A stretch of DNA of 24,000 nucleotides from Chloroflexota bacterium (GTDB lineage: Bacteria > Chloroflexota > Anaerolineae > Promineifilales > Promineifilaceae): positions 7,932-31,931 of the forward strand of contig JAACFF010000016.1 in assembly GCA_009937635.1 (NCBI GenBank), written 5' to 3'. Each line of letters begins with the position of its first letter. The first letter of the stretch is position 1. Made by a program: the position numbers and the translations under genes. The notes beneath the pieces were generated by a model that saw nothing but the letters and a program-made list of their open reading frames with translations, was not told the origin of the DNA and searched no databases. Of the stretch, positions 2,582 through 15,910 are shown piece by piece.

Positions 2582-3100
2582 TCATCCAAGATTCAGGCGC
2601 AAAATGTCGTTCATCCGAAATCCAAAATCAAATGATCCGATTACCAATCCGATATTGATCGCCGCATTCACTATTGCGGGCAGGCGTCGTTGGTTGAAAA
2701 CTTTTTGCAGATGCTGGCTGGCTACTGCCAGTGCGCCAAATGACAAGAAAGTAAACGGAAGCGGGAAAGAGTAGCGGCCAGTGATTAGTGAAAAGAGAAG
2801 ATTGTGTAGCACTCCATTCACAAAGAAAACCACGACTGCTGCCAGCTCCCTTTTCCGCCTCCCACCCAGAAGTAGATAAAATCGAAAACAGAAGTAGCTG
2901 ATCCCTGGATTCCAAACCCGCCAGAAATTGTGGAAACCTGGTTCTAGCCAGCAGGTCAGAAATCCGCGCTTTACGAAAAACCAGTCGTTAACATGATCTT
3001 CAAACCCGCGAAGCCTTAGATATCCCGTGTAGTCAACAATAAACAACTTATGGGAGGTGCTTAAGCGGGTTTTTGTATCATCGAGAAGGCTCCGACCCAT
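2582..3100 (-). CDS. MBOAT_2-like (wax-synthase-type) membrane acyltransferase domain protein, unusually short
   Basis: 172 aa and hydrophobic. It has the FWRVWN motif followed by the conserved His context VNGVLHNLLF, typical of the MBOAT_2 domain. Only about 60 aa precede the motif, so it may be N-terminally truncated. It lies 24 nt downstream of the hydrolase gene. Confidence 0.6.
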   Translation of the reverse strand: MGRSLLDDTKTRLSTSHKLFIVDYTGYLRLRGFEDHVNDWFFVKRGFLTCWLEPGFHNFWRVWNPGISYFCFRFYLLLGGRRKRELAAVVVFFVNGVLHNLLFSLITGRYSFPLPFTFLSFGALAVASQHLQKVFNQRRLPAIVNAAINIGLVIGSFDFGFRMNDILRLNLG

Positions 3101-7200: not shown

Positions 7201-7416
7201 ATGCCAATGAACAGCTATCGCAATATCTTGCTGATTGAAGATGATCCGGCCGTCGCGCGCAGTTTGATTGATGGGCTAGAACAAGCCAACTTTCAGGTTA
7301 CGTGGCAAGAAAACGGCCGTGACGGCATCGCCTATGCCCACGATCGCCGCCCTCACCTGATTACCCTCGACGTGTGCCTGCCGAAGTCCTCTCCAACGCT
7401 GACGTCTGCGTGCTAG
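7201..7416 (+). pseudogene. Response-regulator receiver domain fragment (N-terminal ~60 aa only)
   Basis: NILLIEDDPAVARSLIDGLEQANFQVTWQENGRDGIAYAHDRRPHLITLDVCLP is a receiver domain running up to the phospho-Asp strand. Similarity is then lost (KSSPTLTSAC, stop). There is no alpha4-beta5 region and no output domain. Confidence 0.7.
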
Positions 7417-8138
7417 GACAGAAAACGGCCGGGCAGTTATTTTGCGGTGACAATCTGCTGCAAGAAATCGTGTGGGTCAACCAGCGTAAATGCCTGGTCA
7501 TTGGCGTACTGACTGAGTTGGAAGTGACCAATCCCGCTCTACGCAACCAGCTTCGCCCCAACGAAGCCTTCTATTTGCCCATCAGTACCGCGATCAATAA
7601 CCTGTTCGATGAGCCGTCGTCGGTGCAAATCACGGCCCACGTCACAGATGAAAGCCGTATGGTCGAGGCACGCTGCCAGATCGTCGACTATCTGCGCTTG
7701 CGTCATGCCATTGGCAAAGATGAAGTTGGCCAATGGGAGGATGACATTGAATTGACGGCACGCCAGGACATATTGGGGGCCCAGCAGCAGGCAGCCCGCA
7801 CCTTCTCATTTCTGCTGGCGGCAATGGCTGCGGTCTCCTTATTGGTAGGCGGGATTGGCATTCTGAACGTGATGCTGGTTAGCGTCGTCGAGCGCACGCG
7901 CGAGATTGGGGTGCTCCTGGCCGTCGGCGCCCGGTCGCAGGACATAGTCACCCAGTTTTCGCTGGAGGCAATACTCATCAGTGGCTTTGGTGGCCTGCTG
8001 GGCGTTGCCGTAGGCGTATTGAGCATTCCGTTGGTGGTCAATTTCAACCAGGGCGTGGCGCTGCTGGCGCCGGGTAGCATCCCCCTGGCTTTGGGCATTG
8101 CTCCGCCCAGCGTGTTGTCAGCCACTAGAAATCGTTGA
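7374..8138 (+). pseudogene. MacB/FtsX-type ABC transporter permease, 3' fragment with decayed C-terminus
   Basis: It starts inside the periplasmic domain (ADVCVLGQKTAGQLF) and lacks TM1. The FtsX core is SLLVGGIGILNVMLVSVVERTREIGVLLAVGARSQDIV. The expected C-terminal YPA..AA.L.P.EAL signature appears only in other frames (SAQRVVSH; LNTPAEAIEM near 8166-8195), implying frameshifts. No ATPase gene is adjacent. Confidence 0.75.
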
Positions 8139-8209: not shown

Positions 8210-10252
8210 CTATTGCGTACCGACAGAAGAGGCTACCAGATTTCTGACCTGGGCTAGCAAATCATTTTGTTTAGCATTACCCTTATCAATAATATATTGG
8301 ACACCGCCGTCAAGCTGCTGGCGATCTTCGTCGCTTAGATCCTTGGCCGTAATGACGATGATCGGGATCGAGCGATTCTCCTCATTCTGACGTAAAGCCA
8401 GCAAGAATTCAAAACCGTCCATCACCGGCATCATCAAATCTAGCGTAATCAAATCCGGTTTGCGCTCTGATACACGCTGCAGGCCAATAGCGCCGTTTTC
8501 TGCTTCCGATACATCCCAACCATTTTCCTCAAATGTGCGGCGTTGCAGCGTACGTGTTGGCTCGTCATCTTCAACCACCAGGACATGTCTCGTGCCCTTG
8601 GGGAGGGTGTATTGGCGGACCGTCTGCAAGAGTAATTTGCGATCAATCGGCTTGGTCAACGACTCTACTGCACCAAGCGTGTAGCCCATATTTTTGTCGG
8701 CTACTATCGACGCCATGATTACCGGGATGTTCTCCAACTCGGGTTCCGCTTTAAGCTTTTGTAACACAGTCCAGCCATCCATGTCAGGCATCATAATGTC
8801 CAGCGTAATCAGCGATGGCTTCAGCTTACGCGCCAGATCCAATCCTTCTGCTCCGCTGCCAGCTGTCACCACGGCATGGCCATCCAACTTCAGTGTTCTT
8901 GAAATAAGATCGCGGGCAATAGGATCATCATCAATGATCAATATAGAAGATTTCGCTGAAGTGATAGAATCAGCGTCCGCAGCAACATCGATTGATGCGG
9001 CCTTAGCGGCTTCCAGCGCATCCACCTTAGCCGGCAACTCTATGGTGAAAGTCGATCCTTCACCCACCTCACTTGTCGCTGTGAGATCACCACCCATCAT
9101 TCGGCAGAACTTCTGACTAATGGGCAGACCCAGACCTGTTCCTCCAAAGTTTCGCGTTGTCGAATCGTCAGCCTGGGAGAAAGCTTCAAACACGTGGTCT
9201 ATCTTGTCATCGGGAATGCCTATACCCTCATCGCTAACGCTGATAAAGATCTTATCGCCGTCATCGTGCTTCTCTCGCATTGCAGCGACAGTGATCGTAC
9301 CCTCATTTGTGAATTTGGCTGCGTTTGAAAGTAAATTGAAAAGAACTTGCCGGGTCTTTGTCAGATCAGCCCGTATGGTTCCCAGATCTTCGGGAAAGTC
9401 AGTGGCCAGAAGATTGTTGTTTTTGTCGATAAGTGGTTGAACTGTTGACATTGCCTCAGACAGCATTTGCCGGAGATCGAAGCGTTCTAGATAGATGTCC
9501 ATTCTACCGGCTTCGATCTTCGAGAGGTCAAGGATGTCGTTGATCAAACCCAGGAGATGCCGGCCAGCGGCATTGATCTTTTCAAGGTCTGGGACCATCT
9601 CATCATAGCCATCGTCCTCGGCGTCTTCGGCCAACATTTCGCTGTAGCCGATGATGGCATTCATTGGCGTGCGCAATTCATGGCTCATATTGGCCAGGAA
9701 AGAACTCTTCGCCTGATTAGCATTTTTTGCTTCCTGCGTGGCCTGCTCAAGCTGTGCCGTTCGCTGCCGGACAACTTCTTCTAAATCGGCTTGATATTCT
9801 TGCAGCGCACGATTTTTTGATTGGATCTCGGCCATCAGCTCATCACGCCCTTTCCGGGCCATCATCGCCTTTAGTCTGGCGATGATTTCTGTGGTAGGTG
9901 GCTGCACGATGTTCAGATATTTTTGTGCACGTACAGTTTGTTGCGCATTGCCGGTGGGCAAAAAGCGGACATCGTCAAAGAATTGGGTCAATAATTGGGT
10001 CTCAGACACGTCCGCCATCTCGCCAAATTCGAACACGAGTGCGTTCTGTCCGACTTTAGTCGATAAACCGACAACAATCGTGGTCGATTGAGCGGTCCGC
10101 TGCAACGCCCGGCTAATCGTCGAAGCAATCGTTGCCAACCGCGTGGCCAAAATTCCATCGCCGGAAATGGTTTCAGCGATCACCTGAATCTTCTTACGGA
10201 CGTCGGTGATTGAGCTTTGTTCGCTGATATTGATCGTGCCAATGGGTATCAT
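8210..10252 (-). CDS. Hybrid sensor histidine kinase (N-terminal degenerate RsbT-like domain, coiled coil, HisKA, HATPase, REC, REC)
   Basis: 680 aa. H-box is [24 protein letters not shown]-box is [11 protein letters not shown], and G-boxes are VSDEGIGIP and [11 protein letters not shown]. The two receivers are ILIIDDDP...[13 protein letters not shown] and VLVVEDDE...[13 protein letters not shown]. Its ATG abuts the TAG of the upstream PP2C gene. Confidence 0.9.
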
Positions 10253-10867
10253 CTACTTGCGATACCGCACGACAAGACAGGTGGCATCATCATATTGTTT
10301 GCCATAATTGCGTACGATTTTTCTGGCAACAGATCTCGAGCTTTCGTAAATGAGTTGTGGATACTCACTTAATTCGAAACGGTCTTTAATGCCATCACTA
10401 TAAAATGTGAGCACTTCTGTTTCATCCAGCTGAAGTTTTTGTTCTCTAGGGCTTCGCATGCGGCTGCCGACAACGCCCTCAGTCGAAGGTAGGCGGATTG
10501 AGCGAGTGCCGAATTTGCGTATGACAGTATTGCCAACCCCAGTGTAACGCAATTTCCCGCTCGCTAGATCAAGGCTGGCTAATCCGACTGCCGCGCCAAT
10601 GGAACCTCGGATCGCCTCATGCAAGCCTAAAAGGGTGCTAACTACATCTTCTTGCCATTCTGCATCTAAAAAAGTTCGAATTTGCACAGCTATGTCATTA
10701 GCATTAGGTCCATGACCGAGAGCATCGACAATCGCCAAGAACACGGACCCATTACGGGAGCGAACGATGGCGTCATCTCCGCTAACCAACTCGCCAAAGC
10801 ATGGACGGGCAACGGAAGCGTACTCCAGCTCGTCTACATTGCCAAAACTTTCATCAAGCATAACCAT
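10253..10867 (-). CDS. rsbX: RsbX-like PP2C/SpoIIE-family serine phosphatase
   Basis: 204-aa single-domain protein with GDDAIV...LAIVDALGHGPNA and a C-terminal YSDGI...DD(A)T pattern, typical of RsbX-type feedback phosphatases. It sits directly after the RsbT gene. An AGGAA SD precedes the ATG. Confidence 0.8.
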   Translation of the reverse strand: MVMLDESFGNVDELEYASVARPCFGELVSGDDAIVRSRNGSVFLAIVDALGHGPNANDIAVQIRTFLDAEWQEDVVSTLLGLHEAIRGSIGAAVGLASLDLASGKLRYTGVGNTVIRKFGTRSIRLPSTEGVVGSRMRSPREQKLQLDETEVLTFYSDGIKDRFELSEYPQLIYESSRSVARKIVRNYGKQYDDATCLVVRYRK

Positions 10868-10892: not shown

Positions 10893-11303
10893 TTATCGGC
10901 GACGCCATTTTCTGATCTGCACCGTCGTGCCCTGCCCCTCAGCGGAGTGAATCTCGAATTCATCCATCAAGCGCTTGACACCTGGAAGGCCAAGCCCCAA
11001 TGTGCCGCTAGAACTATAATTATCGGCTACGGCTTGTTTAATATCGGCAATGCCTGGTCCTTTGTCCTGGGCGACGATTTCAATACCTATTTGGTAGCCC
11101 TTCTCGATCCGATCGATGATTATCTCGCCCTTGTCTGCGTACTTGATGATATTGCGAGCTAACTCAGAAACGGCCGTTGCAATCATCTGCGTTTCGACTT
11201 CGGCAAATTCTATCTCCTTAGCAAACCTACGGGCTTCCAGTAAAGCTCGGGCAACATCTTGTTCCTGAATAATCGGAACACGTCTCTTATCTGATGACAT
11301 CAA
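10893..11303 (-). CDS. rsbT: RsbT-type serine/threonine protein kinase (HATPase_c_2, stressosome switch kinase)
   Basis: About 135 aa. N-box is IATAVSELARNIIKYA, G1 is DKGPGI and G2 is GLGLPGVKRLMDEF. Size and position after RsbS match RsbT. The track start is a TTG at 11303 and the ATG at 11300 is the more likely start. Confidence 0.9.
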   Translation of the reverse strand: MMSSDKRRVPIIQEQDVARALLEARRFAKEIEFAEVETQMIATAVSELARNIIKYADKGEIIIDRIEKGYQIGIEIVAQDKGPGIADIKQAVADNYSSSGTLGLGLPGVKRLMDEFEIHSAEGQGTTVQIRKWRRR

Positions 11304-11333: not shown

Positions 11334-11717
11334 TTACTTTTGATCCTCAACGAGACCAAATGCGTCGTCCAGATTAAATGCGGCCAGGATGCCCTCTACA
11401 TCGGCATTTAGCTCGATTAATGCTGATACGACGCCCGGTCGCATGCCGGCTACTATCGATCGCGCGCCCATCAGAGAAACCATCGACATTGTATGCCTGA
11501 GCGCCTCAAATTCCTCCAAATCTAATATTTGGAGCCCGGATAAATCGAAAATGACTGCTTGAGCGCCCGACCGCTGTAAGAACTCAAGCAAATCCGCCCG
11601 AAAACGGCGAAGTACGTCATAGGTCAAATCAACTTGAATTGAAGCTACAATGCAATTGCGCGAAAGCTGCAGAGGAATTCGAGCTGAGTTTTCCGCGCCC
11701 AACAAATCAAGAGACAA
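11334..11717 (-). CDS. rsbS: RsbS-type single STAS-domain protein (stressosome scaffold/antagonist)
   Basis: 127 aa that aligns without gaps to B. subtilis RsbS as I recall it (RIPLQLSRNCIVASIQVDL... vs KIPILKLYNCLLVSIQWEL...; LMGARSIVAGMRPGVVSALIELN vs [23 protein letters not shown]). TTG start with GGAGA 6 nt upstream. It overlaps the rsbR stop by 11 nt. Confidence 0.9.
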   Translation of the reverse strand: MSLDLLGAENSARIPLQLSRNCIVASIQVDLTYDVLRRFRADLLEFLQRSGAQAVIFDLSGLQILDLEEFEALRHTMSMVSLMGARSIVAGMRPGVVSALIELNADVEGILAAFNLDDAFGLVEDQK

Positions 11718-12606
11718 GCTTTATCTCCATACCAAGACGATTGTAAGCATCAGATAAGGCATCTTTCATGGTGGCAGTCGTCTTAACCGTGCCAACCTCG
11801 ATACCCAGTTCGACAATGGTCTGGGCAATGGCTGGGGATACGCCGGAAATAGTACAGGAACAGCCCATTAAACGAGTAGCTTTGGTAATCTTTATCAAAT
11901 GGTTAGCAACGGCCGTGTCGACCACCGCAACACCACTGATATCCATGATGAACACCCGCGCCTGGGTCTCGGCGATTTTTTCCAGCGCCGCGTTCATGAT
12001 ATCCTGAGCCCGTTTAGAATCAACAATCCCGACGATCGGCAGCAATAAAATGCCACTCCAAATTTGGGTGACCGGTGTCGACATCTCCATCAGCGATCTG
12101 CTTTGCATGGCCATGGTCTCGTTAACGTGCTGCGAGTAGGTTTCGACGACCACGGCCGTGTCCATGTGCACCTGCTTCATCAGGGCTTTCAAGGTGTCAG
12201 AGGGACCATCCCCGGATCTGTTTGCATCAACAACTTCCGTGAATAATCCCAGAAAAACATTCATGGCCGCAAAATAAGTGCTGAGTGGTAGACCGATCCG
12301 CGCATGCGTGGTTCCTACCCGTTGTCGGCTGCTCATGTACTCATCGTCAATTTCGGCCCGAAAGAATTGGTGCCAATAATTAGTAACCAATCCCTCGACA
12401 CGCTTCTGAACCTGATCATCAGAGAAATATTCGTCATACTCCGGTTGGGTTCTGAGCCAGTCGTAGAAATTATGGACATGTTCCGATATCCTATCAATTA
12501 CAGCGCCAGCCAAATCTCGGATCAAATTGAGGTCATCTTGGGAAATCTGATATAGTTCACGTAATGCTTCCGGATCCAGCCCGGAACCCCTTCTTTCTTC
12601 AATCAT
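11707..12606 (-). CDS. rsbR: RsbR-type stressosome sensor with N-terminal globin-coupled-sensor (protoglobin) domain
   Basis: The N-terminal globin-coupled sensor signature is VHNFYDWL...VTNYWHQFF...RVGTTHARIGLPLSTYF (putative proximal His). The C-terminal RsbR STAS is STPVTQIWSGILLLPIVGIVDSKRAQ...MDISGVAVVDTAVANH...GVSPAIAQTIVELG. I place the start at ATG 12606 (AGGAGGA SD 8 nt upstream) rather than the track's TTG at 12639. Confidence 0.85.
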   Translation of the reverse strand: MIEERRGSGLDPEALRELYQISQDDLNLIRDLAGAVIDRISEHVHNFYDWLRTQPEYDEYFSDDQVQKRVEGLVTNYWHQFFRAEIDDEYMSSRQRVGTTHARIGLPLSTYFAAMNVFLGLFTEVVDANRSGDGPSDTLKALMKQVHMDTAVVVETYSQHVNETMAMQSRSLMEMSTPVTQIWSGILLLPIVGIVDSKRAQDIMNAALEKIAETQARVFIMDISGVAVVDTAVANHLIKITKATRLMGCSCTISGVSPAIAQTIVELGIEVGTVKTTATMKDALSDAYNRLGMEIKLVS

Positions 12607-12668
12607 TAGGATGCTTCCTCCTATCTTTTTCCGCTGCAAATTTCAGCCATTTTCGTCAAAAGACCTTT

Positions 12669-14531
12669 CTACCGGGTCTGCAAGTGGTTCATGGCGAAAT
12701 TAACACCATTTTGCAGGGTTCGTTCGGTGCTAATCCCTTCAAGATGTAAATTGAGTTCAGTAAGTTCCACCGCAACTTGGGGTTGCAGACCGGTAATCAC
12801 AACCTTGGCACCAAGTAAATTCGCCTTTTTGGCAACGCGTATCAAGCTCATTGCCACTGCTTCATCGAGACTCGGAACCCCGGTCAGATCCAGGATGGCC
12901 ACTCTCGCCGATGAGGTATAAAGTCCCTCTGTCAGTAGTTCGCTGGCGTTGCCCAGACGGCGTTCGTCAAGCTCGCCAACTAAGGGCATGACGACAATAT
13001 CATCAGTCAAGGGTATCATCGGTGTTGACAGGGCGTCGATAGCCGCGTTCTGCTGGCGAATAAACTGCTTGACGGACTGGCGCATTGAATCAAAGCTTCT
13101 GGATAAATCGCCAATTTCATCTTTGCGGTCCGTATTGATCGTGATGTCCAAATTGCCGTCCGCCAATTCGCTCGCATTTCCTGCCAGCGTCTCCAAGGGA
13201 CCGGTGATTGACCTGGAAAAGATAATAGCCAGGATCACAATGAGGATCAGTAAAATGATCGAACTGATAAGCAATGTTCGGCCCAATGTTTGGGCAGGGG
13301 CAAAGGCTTCAGCTTCATCAATTTCACTCATGATGACCCAGTTCACGCCTGGTATCTCGAGCGGCTTATATGATGACAGGACTGGGATACCGCGATAGTC
13401 GGGGAAAATGGCCGTTCCTGTTTCACCGGCCTGTGCGGCGCGCGTGCCATCGGTCATGACCTCTTGTAAGCCAATGCTGCTGTTCAAGTTACGAATTTGA
13501 TCGATGGTCTCTTGCTCCGTACCGGTTTCTTGCAGGAGGTCAAAATACTCATCGCTATCCTCAATAAGAAAGCGCGATTGATTGCGTATTGTAAGGTCAT
13601 CACCTACCAGGTAGGTTTCTCCCGAATCACCAAGGCCCATCTGGTTCCACGCCTGGCGGTTGGTCATAATGTCATTAATGCGATCGACGGGCATCTGAAA
13701 TAGCAACACGCCGATCTTTTCGCCGTCATCAAAGATGGGTGAGGCGATGAAGGCGGCCGGGGCATTATAAGAAGGGGCATAAGGATCAAAATCGACCATG
13801 TAAACAAATTCACCTTTGCCTGCGTCCAATGCTGACCTGAATGCTTCAGCGAAATTCGTATCGCTATAAGGCCCGTCGAGCAGCGAAGTGCCATAATCGA
13901 CTTCTTTGAAGACTGTATAGACGATATCACCTTCCGTATTGGCCAAGAAGATGTCGTAATATCCAAAAGTATCCAGGAAGTTGCGGATGATGGGATGATA
14001 AAGCTCGTGTGAATCACTATAACGGCTGCCATCGCCAGGATTATCCAAAAGATGCTTGGAGCCTACCTCAAAGGGATTAGAGGCAATATAAAGATCCTGC
14101 AATAGTTGCGTTGTGGTCTCTTCTGGCCAAAACTCGTCTACGCTGACGCTACTCTGTAAATTGGGAATAAGCCGCGAGAGATACTCCTCCGAATAATAAC
14201 CCCGAAGCTTGTTGGCCGCCTCGCCCACTTCTTCTTGAGAGCGATCCAGCTCGGAGTCGATTTCTCGATAGCTATCGTCAAAGGCCTTGGTCGCTTCAAC
14301 GATCATGCGATCTTCAGAAAGCGTCACGACCTGACCGCTTATTTGCTGGAAGTAGTCTTCAATCTGGTTGGCCTTCATTTCGCGCACGGCCGTCAGTTTG
14401 TTAAGTGATTCTGCTTGCAAGGCGTTCTTGGCGATGGTAAAGCCGATGAAGCCGGTTACACCTACAGCTACAATTGCGATGGCAATGAAGGCTATTAGCA
14501 TTTTCGTCCGGATTCTTAGATTATTGAGCAT
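12669..14531 (-). CDS. Transmembrane dCache-like / HAMP / STAS receptor (membrane-anchored RsbR paralogue)
   Basis: 620 aa. TM1 is about aa 11-33. The ~380-aa extracytoplasmic region has Cache-type motifs (KLTAVREMKANQIEDYF, YDIFLANTEGDIVYT, GVLLFQMP, YRGIPVLSSY). TM2 is about aa 419-438 and HAMP about 439-492 (PLETLAGNASELADGNLD...DEIGDLSRSFDSM). The RsbR-like STAS is about aa 500-615 (STPMIPLTDDIVVMPLVGELDERR...ILDLTGVPSLDEAVA...ITGLQPQVAVELTELN). Confidence 0.85.
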   Translation of the reverse strand: MLNNLRIRTKMLIAFIAIAIVAVGVTGFIGFTIAKNALQAESLNKLTAVREMKANQIEDYFQQISGQVVTLSEDRMIVEATKAFDDSYREIDSELDRSQEEVGEAANKLRGYYSEEYLSRLIPNLQSSVSVDEFWPEETTTQLLQDLYIASNPFEVGSKHLLDNPGDGSRYSDSHELYHPIIRNFLDTFGYYDIFLANTEGDIVYTVFKEVDYGTSLLDGPYSDTNFAEAFRSALDAGKGEFVYMVDFDPYAPSYNAPAAFIASPIFDDGEKIGVLLFQMPVDRINDIMTNRQAWNQMGLGDSGETYLVGDDLTIRNQSRFLIEDSDEYFDLLQETGTEQETIDQIRNLNSSIGLQEVMTDGTRAAQAGETGTAIFPDYRGIPVLSSYKPLEIPGVNWVIMSEIDEAEAFAPAQTLGRTLLISSIILLILIVILAIIFSRSITGPLETLAGNASELADGNLDITINTDRKDEIGDLSRSFDSMRQSVKQFIRQQNAAIDALSTPMIPLTDDIVVMPLVGELDERRLGNASELLTEGLYTSSARVAILDLTGVPSLDEAVAMSLIRVAKKANLLGAKVVITGLQPQVAVELTELNLHLEGISTERTLQNGVNFAMNHLQTR

Positions 14532-14663
14532 ACTATTTGGAAATTCCTTGTGACAGATCTGGACGCCAATTGAACGGTAGCACTCGCATTTTGGCTTAAC
14601 AAGTATATCACCTGCCGCTTGAAATGACTAATATCATAGTCTGGAATATGGGGCAATCGCATA

Positions 14664-15030
14664 CTAACCTGACAGCACCTTAACAAGATAATCTTCATTC
14701 CAAGCCGCTTGAAGTCTCTTGGCTTTGATGCCACCTTTAGCTGCCTTCTCCTGTTTAAGCAGATTAAGCGCCATATGACACATGACCGCCAGGTTTTGGT
14801 CCGTATTCCCTGGCGGACACGACTGTCATCTTCACGAAAAGCCACATCCAAGACCCAGTGCAGGCTGTTTTCGATTTCCCAATGACAGTGTCTTGGTCCG
14901 TGTCTGTAACAACAGATGCACTCCTCGCTTTGGTGGTATTCCGTTACGTTATAACAAGTGTGCGGTTGTTGAAGATGCCCCAACAACAAGTTCAAGCGGA
15001 TGAAATCAAAGTCAAAGAGGGTGGGTATTT
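14664..15030 (-). mobile_element. ISAs1-family (H-repeat-associated) transposase 3' remnant, frameshifted
   Basis: HWEIENSLHWVLDVAFREDDSRVRQG is the conserved C-terminal ISAs1 transposase motif. After a 1-nt frameshift near 14805-14812 the family C-terminus continues in another frame (NTDQNLAVMCHMALNLLKQEKAAKGGIKAKRLQAAWNEDYLVKVLSG, stop at 14664-14666). The N-terminal two-thirds of the transposase is absent. Confidence 0.7.
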
Positions 15031-15540
15031 GTGGTTAGCCATGGCCACCTGGATCTCACCCATGGCATCGCCCATACTCAGTTCCATAGCCAGCTTGCGT
15101 GCCTCGTCTGGCTCGGTCGTTACCTGCCCATGGTAGAGGTCTGGGGCCAGGACGACGTAGCCTTCTTCGGCAAAGCGCCGCGAGACGTCTTTGATGTGCT
15201 CGTTGAGGCCCCACCATTCCTGGATGACGATGATCGCCGGCTGTGCCTTTTGGCCAGGCGCATGGGCCAGGTAGCCCATCAGCTCTGCCCCATCAGGCCC
15301 GGCATAGGTGACAATACCTGTTTCCAGTTCGCCGCTTGCACTGAGACCGGGTTCGGGAGGTGGTTGCGTCGAATCGACGACGGGAGGTGGTGTGCGATCG
15401 GTTACTGGGGTACAGGCAGCGAGCAGCATGTTAGCTGCTGCGCTGCCCAAAACGGCCGTGGCTCTGATGAGAAATTCACGCCGGTCGACACTTCCCACCT
15501 GCCGTTCGCGCACCAGTTCCATGAGTTCAATTCTGTTCAT
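14992..15540 (-). pseudogene. Dienelactone hydrolase-family protein, Tat-signal lipoprotein type, C-terminally truncated by the IS remnant
   Basis: ATG at 15540 with an AAGGAG SD. It has a twin-arginine signal SVDRREFLIRATAVLGSAAANMLLAAC and a DLH N-terminal half, IIVIQEWWGLNEHIKDVSRRFAEEGYVVLAPDLYHG. Similarity to the intact paralogue (20134..20967) ends near nt 15037, before the nucleophile GFCFGG region, and unrelated sequence runs to the stop. Confidence 0.7.
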
Positions 15541-15910
15541 TTGTTGTCTCCTTTTCACAAGCTTGTGTCCCCCCTGGCAAACGGTGCCGGTTAGTAGCCA
15601 CCCATTGATAGACTGCGCGTTCAAACTGCTTGATGCCGGGTACATGATAAAGCGTAGCAAATGGCCGTGCCCACCAAATATAGCGCAGTGCGCTATTTAC
15701 TGCTGCTGCGCCACCGGAAAGCCCACTATCATCAACAAACCATGCTTGGGTTATTCCATCACGCTCTGTAAGGCCAAGTTTTGCCATTTGCTCAGGGATA
15801 GATTGCCATGGAGCAACAGAAATACGGAAATGTGACCACGTCTGCACGAGACGAGCCGTTTTCACTCAAAAACCACAATCGCCATCAATTATGAGTAGAG
15901 GCTTTCTCAT
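15527..15910 (-). CDS. DCC-family (DUF393) thiol-disulfide oxidoreductase with in-frame TGA at the second Cys of CxxC (candidate selenoprotein, or a nonsense pseudogene)
   Basis: ATG 15908-15910 has an AGGAG SD 8 nt upstream. It translates MRKPLLIIDGDCGF-TGA(15866-15868)-VKTARLVQTW... in the same frame as track ORF 15527..15865. The downstream part has DCC-family features (FVDDSG..GGAAAVNSALRYI, YQWVATNRHRLPG). The family motif DGxCxxC is here DGDCGF[TGA]. Confidence 0.55.
15832..15865 (-). promoter_or_regulatory. SECIS-like hairpin immediately 3' of the in-frame UGA
   Basis: mRNA after the UGA reads GUGA AAACGGCU CGUCU CGUGC AGACG UGG UCAC. The upper stem is CGUCU/AGACG (15849-15853 with 15839-15843) and the apical loop CGUGC contains GU about 19-20 nt after the UGA. 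The lower stem is GUGA/UCAC, or alternatively GGCU/GGUC with a bulged U. The geometry resembles the E. coli fdhF SECIS as I recall it. Confidence 0.4.

Follow-up and report, generated by a model that had tools for sequence, protein, structure and literature searches.

Architecture of the dCache-HAMP-STAS protein

The DNA analysed here (the window, 24,000 nucleotides) comes from a Chloroflexota bacterium (GCA_009937635.1, contig JAACFF010000016.1) and carries on its minus strand an operon whose genes encode, in order, a Cache-HAMP-STAS protein, a globin-RsbR, RsbS, RsbT, RsbX, and a hybrid histidine kinase, with intergenic gaps of 0-30 bp or overlaps. An earlier annotation made from the letters alone (the sequence-only reading) had described the product of the first gene as a membrane receptor with an RsbR-type STAS output, and its hypotheses were followed up computationally. 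The gene and the parts of its product are as follows.

12669-14531, minus strand: dCache-HAMP-STAS gene, putative membrane RsbR paralogue; intact open reading frame (ORF) of 620 amino acids (aa), stop codon included, with Pfam dCache_1, HAMP and STAS matches
14433-14501, minus strand: first transmembrane segment, aa ~11-33 (Kyte-Doolittle hydropathy in 19-aa windows, peak 2.74)
13278-14432, minus strand: extracytoplasmic sensor, aa ~34-418 (Pfam dCache_1, secondary structure of an AlphaFold2 model, Foldseek, invariant residues)
13218-13277, minus strand: second transmembrane segment, aa ~419-438 (Kyte-Doolittle peak 3.47; lies within a continuous helix of the model, 411-457)
13068-13217, minus strand: HAMP domain, aa ~439-488 (Pfam 438-488, 50.9 bits, above cut-off; PDB matches to the HtrII and Af1503 HAMP domains)
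13020-13067, minus strand: helical linker, aa 489-504, terminating in the RsbR junction motif Q-x3-I-x-A-L-S-T-P
12672-13019, minus strand: RsbR-type STAS domain, aa 505-620 (phmmer, structural match to RsbS, neighbour-joining tree)

A database protein that is 100% identical to the window protein (P0001/P0002) is annotated from the second ATG, giving 610 aa. We favour the first ATG because L5, I7, R8, and K10 are conserved in the 620-aa homologues. The N-terminus ahead of the first transmembrane segment is basic (RIRTK), with three K/R in aa 1-10. A promoter and terminator scan returned counts near the shuffled expectation, apart from one weak promoter-like sequence (14630-14602) ahead of the gene.

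The AlphaFold2 model, built on 30 homologues (mean predicted local distance difference test score, pLDDT, 83.9), comprises a stalk helix, a helical insert, two PAS-like modules, a continuous helix from the second transmembrane segment into HAMP, a helix at 472-502, and a canonical STAS domain. Within the extracytoplasmic sensor, where pLDDT is ~85-95, the long stalk helix is followed by an extra helical insert (aa ~75-189) and a double Cache fold. Pfam dCache_1 (PF02743) matched aa 190-400 with 55.1 bits (cut-off 45), and the sensor has the double-PAS-like fold on a long stalk helix between two transmembrane segments that defines this domain type. The STAS match covered aa 504-596 with 45.5 bits, above cut-off. 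Foldseek against the PDB returned the ligand-binding domains of PctA, CtaA, Mlp37, and DctB for the input half (probability 1.00), as well as full-length YtvA and the Listeria stressosome RsbR, and matched the B. subtilis RsbS with a target TM-score of 0.90 and a root-mean-square deviation of 1.6 A. The order proposed beforehand, of a transmembrane segment, a Cache-like ectodomain, a second transmembrane segment, HAMP, and a C-terminal STAS, was thus recovered by hydropathy, Pfam, AlphaFold2, and Foldseek.

Type of the STAS domain

When the STAS region was compared with the PDB using phmmer, it matched Listeria RsbR (2e-18), Vibrio vulnificus RsbR (2e-15), YtvA (1e-14), and RsbS (7e-13), whereas a SpoIIAA-like protein scored just 2e-3. 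Alignment with the STAS domain of the adjacent globin-RsbR is gapless, as had been noted from the sequence, with 31% identity over 124 aa (E=3e-21). The RsbR junction motif, Q-x3-[LI]-x-[EA]-[LM]-S-[TA]-P ... P-[LI]-[VI]-G, is present, and RsbS lacks it. The stretch QNAAIDALSTPMIP...MPLVG aligns gap-free to Listeria RsbR and to the globin-RsbR, and the linker aligns to QKSALQELSAP in the former and QSRSLMEMSTP in the latter. All 14 homologues from GTDB keep the junction motif. A homologue search with linker and STAS only gave 14 matches, mostly contig-edge fragments.

We then placed the domain in a neighbour-joining tree of 53 STAS sequences (Poisson-corrected, 300 bootstraps), for which the YtvA, RsbRA, SpoIIAA, and RsbV reference sequences were entered by hand and the rest were taken from database outputs. 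With SpoIIAA and RsbV as the outgroup, all RsbR-type STAS domains, including those of the Cache-HAMP-STAS family, formed a clade in 276 of 300 bootstraps. In 251 bootstraps the family was monophyletic, and in 3 it grouped with RsbS. The tree and the junction motif therefore agree with the description of a membrane receptor with an RsbR-type STAS output.

Profile searches excluded two other labels. NCBIfam YtvA_fam (NF052652) matched aa 484-607 with 81.1 bits against a cut-off of 250, over profile positions 117-240, which hold the linker and STAS; the window protein lacks the full-length LOV plus STAS match of a YtvA-family photoreceptor. The generic anti-sigma-factor antagonist model TIGR00377 gave 19.8 bits, short of the 53.45 needed for membership. 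A SulP/SLC26 transporter STAS was also rejected, as the protein has two transmembrane segments only and no Sulfate_transp match.

Set against what defines the RsbR family, the window protein has a C-terminal RsbR/RsbS-type STAS domain, the succession of sensor, helical linker, and junction, and a gene encoded with rsbS and rsbT, both in the window and in the 14 GTDB loci and one metagenomic variant (L161) described below. It departs from the family in having E523 and E557 in place of Ser/Thr at the RsbRA T171 and T205 positions, and in not being a soluble cytoplasmic protein, since two transmembrane segments flank its 385-aa ectodomain. YtvA is counted in the RsbR family despite lacking phosphorylatable residues at both sites (PMC3019169, PMC3944199).

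Residues at the RsbR phosphorylation sites

The sequence-only reading had placed Glu at both RsbR phosphorylation sites, as E557 and E589. We located the sites by gapless alignment to Listeria RsbR chains (query residue 490 = chain residue 142), in which T175 and T209, the residues changed in the PDB mutants T175A/E and T209A/E, are the equivalents of B. subtilis T171 and T205.

12963-12965, minus strand: codon of Glu523, equivalent to RsbRA T171, Listeria T175 and YtvA E168 (ungapped to 9o5l, T175E, and to 2mwg)
12861-12863, minus strand: codon of Glu557, equivalent to RsbRA T205, Listeria T209 and YtvA E202 (ungapped to 9o4h, T209E, and to 2mwg)

E557 is the T205 equivalent, as proposed, given its ungapped alignment to Listeria T209, and Glu does occupy both sites, but one of the two coordinates was wrong. 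E589 aligns to Listeria T241 and to T274 of the globin-RsbR, in the AQTIV helix, and is no phospho-site; the T171 equivalent is E523. The adjacent globin-RsbR, for which Thr had been expected at both sites, has Thr242 opposite Glu557 but Ser208 opposite Glu523. Glu557 also falls at the helix-2-start position that holds the phosphorylatable Ser of SpoIIAA/RsbV.

To see how far these residues extend, we aligned the query with its 120 closest database clusters (121 sequences), 117 of the 120 being dCache-HAMP-STAS proteins. Site 1 was E in 39 sequences, P in 30, D in 19, A in 10, T in 5, N in 5, and S in 3, while site 2 was E in 58, S in 19, P in 14, Q in 8, A in 8, D in 4, and T in 3. The E/E pair occurred in 32 of 121, with a concentration among close relatives, and relatives with at least 79% identity were all E/E or D/E. 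Within operons, the partner globin-RsbR had Ser/Thr at both sites in 15 of 15, and the membrane paralogue lacked Ser/Thr at both in 14 of 15, the exception being L003, a Trueperaceae locus. On this alignment, the family-wide property is a loss of phosphorylatable residues with an acidic bias, and not strict phosphomimicry. The suggestion that the protein is constitutively phosphomimetic accordingly stands for this lineage, where both sites are Glu, and fails for the family, where they are variable (E, D, P, A, Q, S); nor is it new, given YtvA.

YtvA carries E168 and E202 at these positions, suggested to mimic phosphothreonine (PMC3019169), and the Glu/Glu pair is hence not unprecedented. A specific YtvA-like ancestry of the Glu/Glu STAS was not supported, with the family and YtvA forming a clade in 70 of 300 bootstraps. 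Because the window protein does not group specifically with YtvA, their shared Glu/Glu state is, as far as the tree can tell, convergent.

Conservation of the sensor and its coupling to the STAS domain

We scanned one genome per GTDB species with patterns from the ectodomain and found the sensor in at least 578 genomes. Ectodomain and HAMP together make up a highly conserved module. Across phyla, ~60 ectodomain residues are invariant, among them Y171, H175, H179, W295, R316, and R320, and the helical insert makes the ectodomain ~100 aa longer than a typical dCache_1. An amino-acid-binding motif was not evident in it by eye, no formal motif test having been made. The sensor of P. aeruginosa SiaA was considered and rejected as an identity, since similarity was confined to the sensor end, the second transmembrane segment, and HAMP (aa 337-493).

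The spacing between the DEIG motif of HAMP and the LSTP junction of the linker (aa 471-504) measures 30 aa in 67 of 69 homologues and 37 aa in the other 2, exactly one heptad more. Such spacing, fixed or shifted by a heptad, is as expected if a continuous coiled coil transmits the signal, and it points to conformational signal transmission and not to a flexible tether.

These two properties bear on the idea that the protein is a passive tether or scaffold, comparable to Prli42. On that view, the STAS domain docks the stressosome at the membrane, the Cache domain is there for localisation or some unrelated purpose, and RsbT receives no ligand signal. Prli42 does tether RsbR1 with little effect on stress sensing (PMC9840623), and the variable former phospho-sites suggest relaxed constraint on regulatory features. 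A HAMP-STAS spacing kept to the residue or moved by one heptad argues the other way, as does an ectodomain with ~60 invariant residues in a module that drives PP2C, methyl-accepting chemotaxis protein (MCP), and kinase outputs in at least 578 species, as would a real ligand sensor. We consider a passive role improbable.

Association with the stressosome operon

Output domains and co-occurrence were counted in the 80 best sensor loci, 79 of which had a scannable output region. Downstream of HAMP, these 79 carried PP2C (39), an MCP signalling domain (19), or STAS (14), the rest being histidine kinase/PAS combinations. A globin-RsbR/RsbS/RsbT/RsbX cluster lay beside all 14 sensor genes with a STAS output. 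Twelve of these genes were immediately upstream of the cluster in the same orientation, and the other two (L003, L037) were ~1-1.2 kb downstream of the kinase gene. No stressosome genes were found within 10 kb at any of the 66 sensor loci with other outputs (PP2C, MCP, kinase), and the difference was highly significant (14/14 vs 0/66, Fisher p=6.6e-16). The 14 loci belong to Gemmatimonadota, Acidobacteriota, Bacteroidota, Deinococcota (Trueperaceae), Desulfobacteraceae, an unclassified deltaproteobacterium, and Chromatiales. A census for co-occurrence with rsbS/rsbT had been proposed with the original description, and its outcome agrees with the predicted link.

Close homologues are named in databases as 'HAMP domain-containing protein', 'methyl-accepting chemotaxis protein', or 'anti-anti-sigma regulatory factor/HAMP domain-containing protein', and the second and third of these names could be read as signs of a mis-annotated chemoreceptor, or of a generic anti-sigma-factor antagonist, adjoining the operon by chance. 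That explanation is effectively refuted. The protein has no MCPsignal (PF00015) match and ends in STAS, so that an MCP identity was rejected; its TIGR00377 score lies far below the cut-off; and the adjacency recurs in every STAS-output locus across several phyla.

The converse test started from globin-RsbR genes on metagenome contigs. The membrane paralogue was directly upstream in 15 of 55 informative loci (27%), and it is therefore an optional accessory of this operon type. Clustered at 90% identity, the Cache-HAMP-STAS family as a whole has at least 117 clusters, and these span at least seven phyla.

Two loci vary the arrangement. At L003 (10001-11938; a Trueperaceae metagenome-assembled genome (MAG), CP070651.1), the Cache-HAMP sensor is fused to a Thr/Thr STAS domain that has 63% identity to the STAS domain of the window globin-RsbR and grouped with globin-RsbR STAS domains in 300 of 300 bootstraps; here the sensor has been joined independently to a canonical RsbR STAS. 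At L161 (4632-6456), gene calling gave one gene for the dCache portion (428 aa) and another for the STAS portion (151 aa), whether through a frameshift, through an assembly error, or because the gene is truly split. Downstream, in place of a hybrid histidine kinase, L161 encodes an RsbT-PP2C fusion, a PP2C/kinase protein, and a small STAS protein.

The other operon genes and their surroundings

The five genes that follow the dCache-HAMP-STAS gene are listed below.

11707-12639, minus strand: globin-coupled RsbR with phosphorylatable Ser208 and Thr242 (Pfam Protoglobin and STAS)
11334-11717, minus strand: RsbS, a single STAS domain (best PDB match V. vulnificus RsbS, 7e-18)
10893-11303, minus strand: RsbT-type serine kinase (Pfam HATPase_c_2; N-box and G-box motifs visible in the sequence)
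10253-10867, minus strand: RsbX-like single-domain PP2C phosphatase (Pfam SpoIIE, 3e-11)
8210-10252, minus strand: hybrid histidine kinase with HisKA, HATPase_c and two receiver domains (Pfam); its start codon abuts the rsbX stop

The globin-RsbR matched V. vulnificus RsbR (PDB 7o0i_B) with E=1e-99, and the RsbX-like gene is placed after rsbT, in agreement with the RSTX module of PMC9237108. Together with its two-component output, this set is the Gram-negative-type O2-sensing stressosome module of PMC4976288 and PMC9237108. Phospho-sites of the Vibrio-type RsbR were mapped in vitro to S178/T182 at the linker end, and the B. subtilis RsbS phospho-site is not conserved in such systems (PMC4976288). 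The window globin-RsbR keeps the S178/T182 equivalents as Ser187/Thr191. Window RsbS has Leu67 at the B. subtilis Ser59 position, and 13 of 14 RsbS proteins (window plus 13 related GTDB operons) have no Ser/Thr there (L, A, V, G, R). Since RsbS lacks this residue, the globin-RsbR is the sole subunit keeping canonical phospho-sites, although RsbT and RsbX are both present.

We presume that the hybrid histidine kinase is the RsbT target. Its first 160 residues form an N-terminal domain with no Pfam match; the Pfam scan found no RsbU_N domain there, in line with PMC9237108. The domain is conserved behind rsbX, at 27-38% identity, in 12 of 14 related GTDB operons, and the ~160-aa region is a candidate RsbT-docking domain.

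The window locus recurs on contigs of several samples, and identical proteins in public data are labelled Chloroflexi/Chloroflexota MAGs. Directly upstream of the operon, within 14516-15660 on the minus strand, are ~33 aa left over from the C-terminus of an ISAs1-family transposase (44 bits, below cut-off) and a dienelactone-hydrolase ORF with a match to no more than the first third of the DLH profile. The two resemble the scar of an old insertion, and the same arrangement is found on contigs from other samples (L162-L164). Elsewhere in the window, 7374-8138 (plus strand) is an apparent fragment of a MacB/FtsX-type permease without its N-terminal part, and 2582-3100 (minus strand) is an apparent 172-aa fragment that matches just the C-terminal third of the MBOAT profile.

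A proposed transmembrane input to the stressosome

With moderate confidence, we propose that the first gene encodes an integral-membrane RsbR paralogue, an accessory, YtvA-like co-antagonist with a transmembrane input to the stressosome. A dimeric-type dCache ectodomain and HAMP stand in for the usual soluble N-terminal sensor, and gene order and co-occurrence indicate that the gene is transcribed together with a complete Vibrio-type O2-sensing stressosome module and is tied to it in evolution. The literature places stressosomes in the cytoplasm (PMC11821858, PMC3944199), and the paralogue probably gives this normally cytoplasmic stress-sensing complex an extracellular input.

The STAS dimer would fill part of the RsbR positions in a mixed core made up chiefly of soluble globin-RsbR and RsbS; both its entry into the RsbR/RsbS core and its binding of RsbT are predictions. 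The HAMP-transmembrane-Cache module would form the turret and anchor the complex at the membrane. Binding of an extracytoplasmic ligand would be passed through the second transmembrane segment, HAMP, and the coiled-coil linker to the STAS domain, where altered packing would change the hold of the core on RsbT, and RsbT, once released, would act on the hybrid histidine kinase. The RsbT/RsbX phosphorylation cycle would run on the globin-RsbR, which alone keeps the canonical sites. Because Glu523 and Glu557 are both non-phosphorylatable, the membrane subunit would be governed by ligand-driven conformation and not by this cycle, behaving like YtvA as an accessory modulator that needs a canonical RsbR partner.

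In this lineage only, the two Glu residues may act as mimics of phosphorylation and may restrict homotypic packing. The Listeria T209E change affects a site at the inter-dimer interface and reduced RsbR content to a 1:1 RsbR:RsbS core (PMC12154155, a preprint). By analogy, this suggests that a permanently acidic E557 would disfavour RsbR-RsbR contacts and favour sparse incorporation. Only some of the turrets of a closed particle can reach into a single membrane, in keeping with the finding that a soluble RsbR always co-occurs. A bolder version of the proposal, which we advance tentatively and with less confidence, is that the stressosome particle itself is membrane-embedded through a few Cache-HAMP turrets and that an extracellular small molecule gates RsbT release to the histidine kinase.

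Several observations weigh against a co-antagonist in the core. The family shows free variation at both sites (E, D, P, A, Q, S, T, N, and others), which argues against selection for phosphomimicry, and site 2 is Ser or Thr in ~19% of the family. The membrane paralogue keeps Ser502 at the Vibrio S178 position, with Ile506 at that of T182, so it could still be phosphorylated. It is missing from ~73% of related operons and, according to the literature, Vibrio lacks any RsbR paralogue; the membrane protein is therefore dispensable for the core mechanism. Its STAS domain forms its own deep branch, with ~28% identity to globin-RsbR STAS domains and ~25% to RsbS. Finally, a closed pseudo-icosahedral particle and a flat membrane demand either sparse incorporation or an assembly unlike the known one.

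Some of these points would suit a membrane-bound STAS partner outside the core, one that binds free RsbT, RsbS dimers, or RsbX in a ligand-dependent manner as a sink or release site and competes with a soluble stressosome. The low identity to both core STAS types (~25-28%) from a separate deep branch is what such a protein might show, and the phospho-sites that RsbT normally uses to act on core subunits are missing from it. Closed-particle geometry, we infer, disfavours many membrane-embedded subunits. YtvA alone builds no stressosome with RsbS (PMC3944199), and the sensor is most often fused to PP2C (39 of 79), which makes free-standing partner-switch components and not core subunits. On the other hand, the window protein retains the RsbR-specific linker/STAS junction and an RsbS-like fold (target TM-score 0.90), and YtvA is reported to be incorporated into stressosomes with other RsbRs, going by the title of reference 37 in PMC3944199. 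The fusion at L003 of the sensor to a bona fide globin-RsbR-type Thr/Thr STAS suggests, in addition, that the sensor is meant for an RsbR position. A partner outside the core is unlikely on balance, though it deserves to be taken seriously, and an accessory RsbR within the core remains the reading we prefer.

The inputs of RsbR proteins, and the coupling of sensor to STAS core, are long-standing open questions about the stressosome. To our knowledge, the only defined inputs are light (YtvA) and O2 (the Vibrio globin). If the particle is indeed membrane-embedded, it would be the first stressosome to take an input through a classical ligand-binding receptor domain, and the first to be signalled to across a membrane. 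It would also raise the structural question of how a closed pseudo-icosahedral particle accommodates membrane-embedded subunits. For the stressosome field, the interest lies in a transmembrane input that is tractable with ligands: a dCache-HAMP ectodomain is amenable to ligand screening, for example by thermal shift, the path from HAMP through a fixed-length coiled coil to STAS is well understood and can be mutated rationally, and versions of the sensor with PP2C, chemoreceptor, or kinase outputs could act as reporters for ligand discovery. An integral-membrane RsbR was not found in literature joining stressosome or RsbR with Cache, HAMP, or transmembrane, a search whose reach did not extend to Pane-Farre et al. 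2005 and later reviews. As far as could be searched, then, the Cache-HAMP-STAS family is widespread in environmental bacteria and undescribed.

Relation to known systems

The closest parallel is YtvA of B. subtilis, with RsbL (Lmo0799) of Listeria. These proteins share with the window protein the order of sensor, helical linker, and RsbR-type STAS, and they are accessory inputs beside canonical, phosphorylatable RsbR proteins. For YtvA, the likeness extends to E168/E202, which correspond to E523/E557 in the ungapped 2mwg alignment, and to YtvA_fam being the best NCBIfam match of the window STAS region. YtvA is a soluble protein whose cytoplasmic LOV domain senses blue light, whereas the window protein is integral to the membrane and has dCache and HAMP. 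YtvA is known only as a positive modulator and, without another RsbR, forms no stressosome with RsbS (PMC3944199).

The other five genes of the window operon correspond to the O2-sensing stressosome of Vibrio vulnificus and V. brasiliensis. Both have an RsbS without the B. subtilis Ser59 site, and in both the RSTX module is followed by a sensor kinase without an RsbU_N domain. They differ in that the window and ~27% of related operons add an upstream membrane-bound paralogue, while Vibrio is stated to have none. A published survey of globin-RsbR loci catalogued downstream modules only (PMC9237108).

Membrane association of stressosome components through RsbR has a precedent in Prli42, which tethers Listeria RsbR1 (PMC9840623). 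Prli42 is a membrane peptide of ~30 aa, without a sensor domain, whose partner is a soluble RsbR; in the window, the membrane protein would be the RsbR paralogue itself, with a large ectodomain of ligand-binding type.

Membrane-bound sensor-HAMP-PP2C phosphatases, such as P. aeruginosa SiaA and RsbU-like proteins, also run from a periplasmic sensor through transmembrane segments and HAMP into partner switching. A PP2C-fused homologue of the window protein (L013) matched SiaA in the HAMP-PP2C part only, with 255 bits against a cut-off of 700. The output in the window is the STAS partner itself and not a phosphatase, and the sensor is not that of SiaA. The dCache_1-HAMP chemoreceptors and sensor kinases PctA, Mlp37, and DctB resemble the window protein in topology and in the fold of the input half, but it has neither an MCP signalling domain nor a kinase domain, and its ectodomain is ~100 aa longer.

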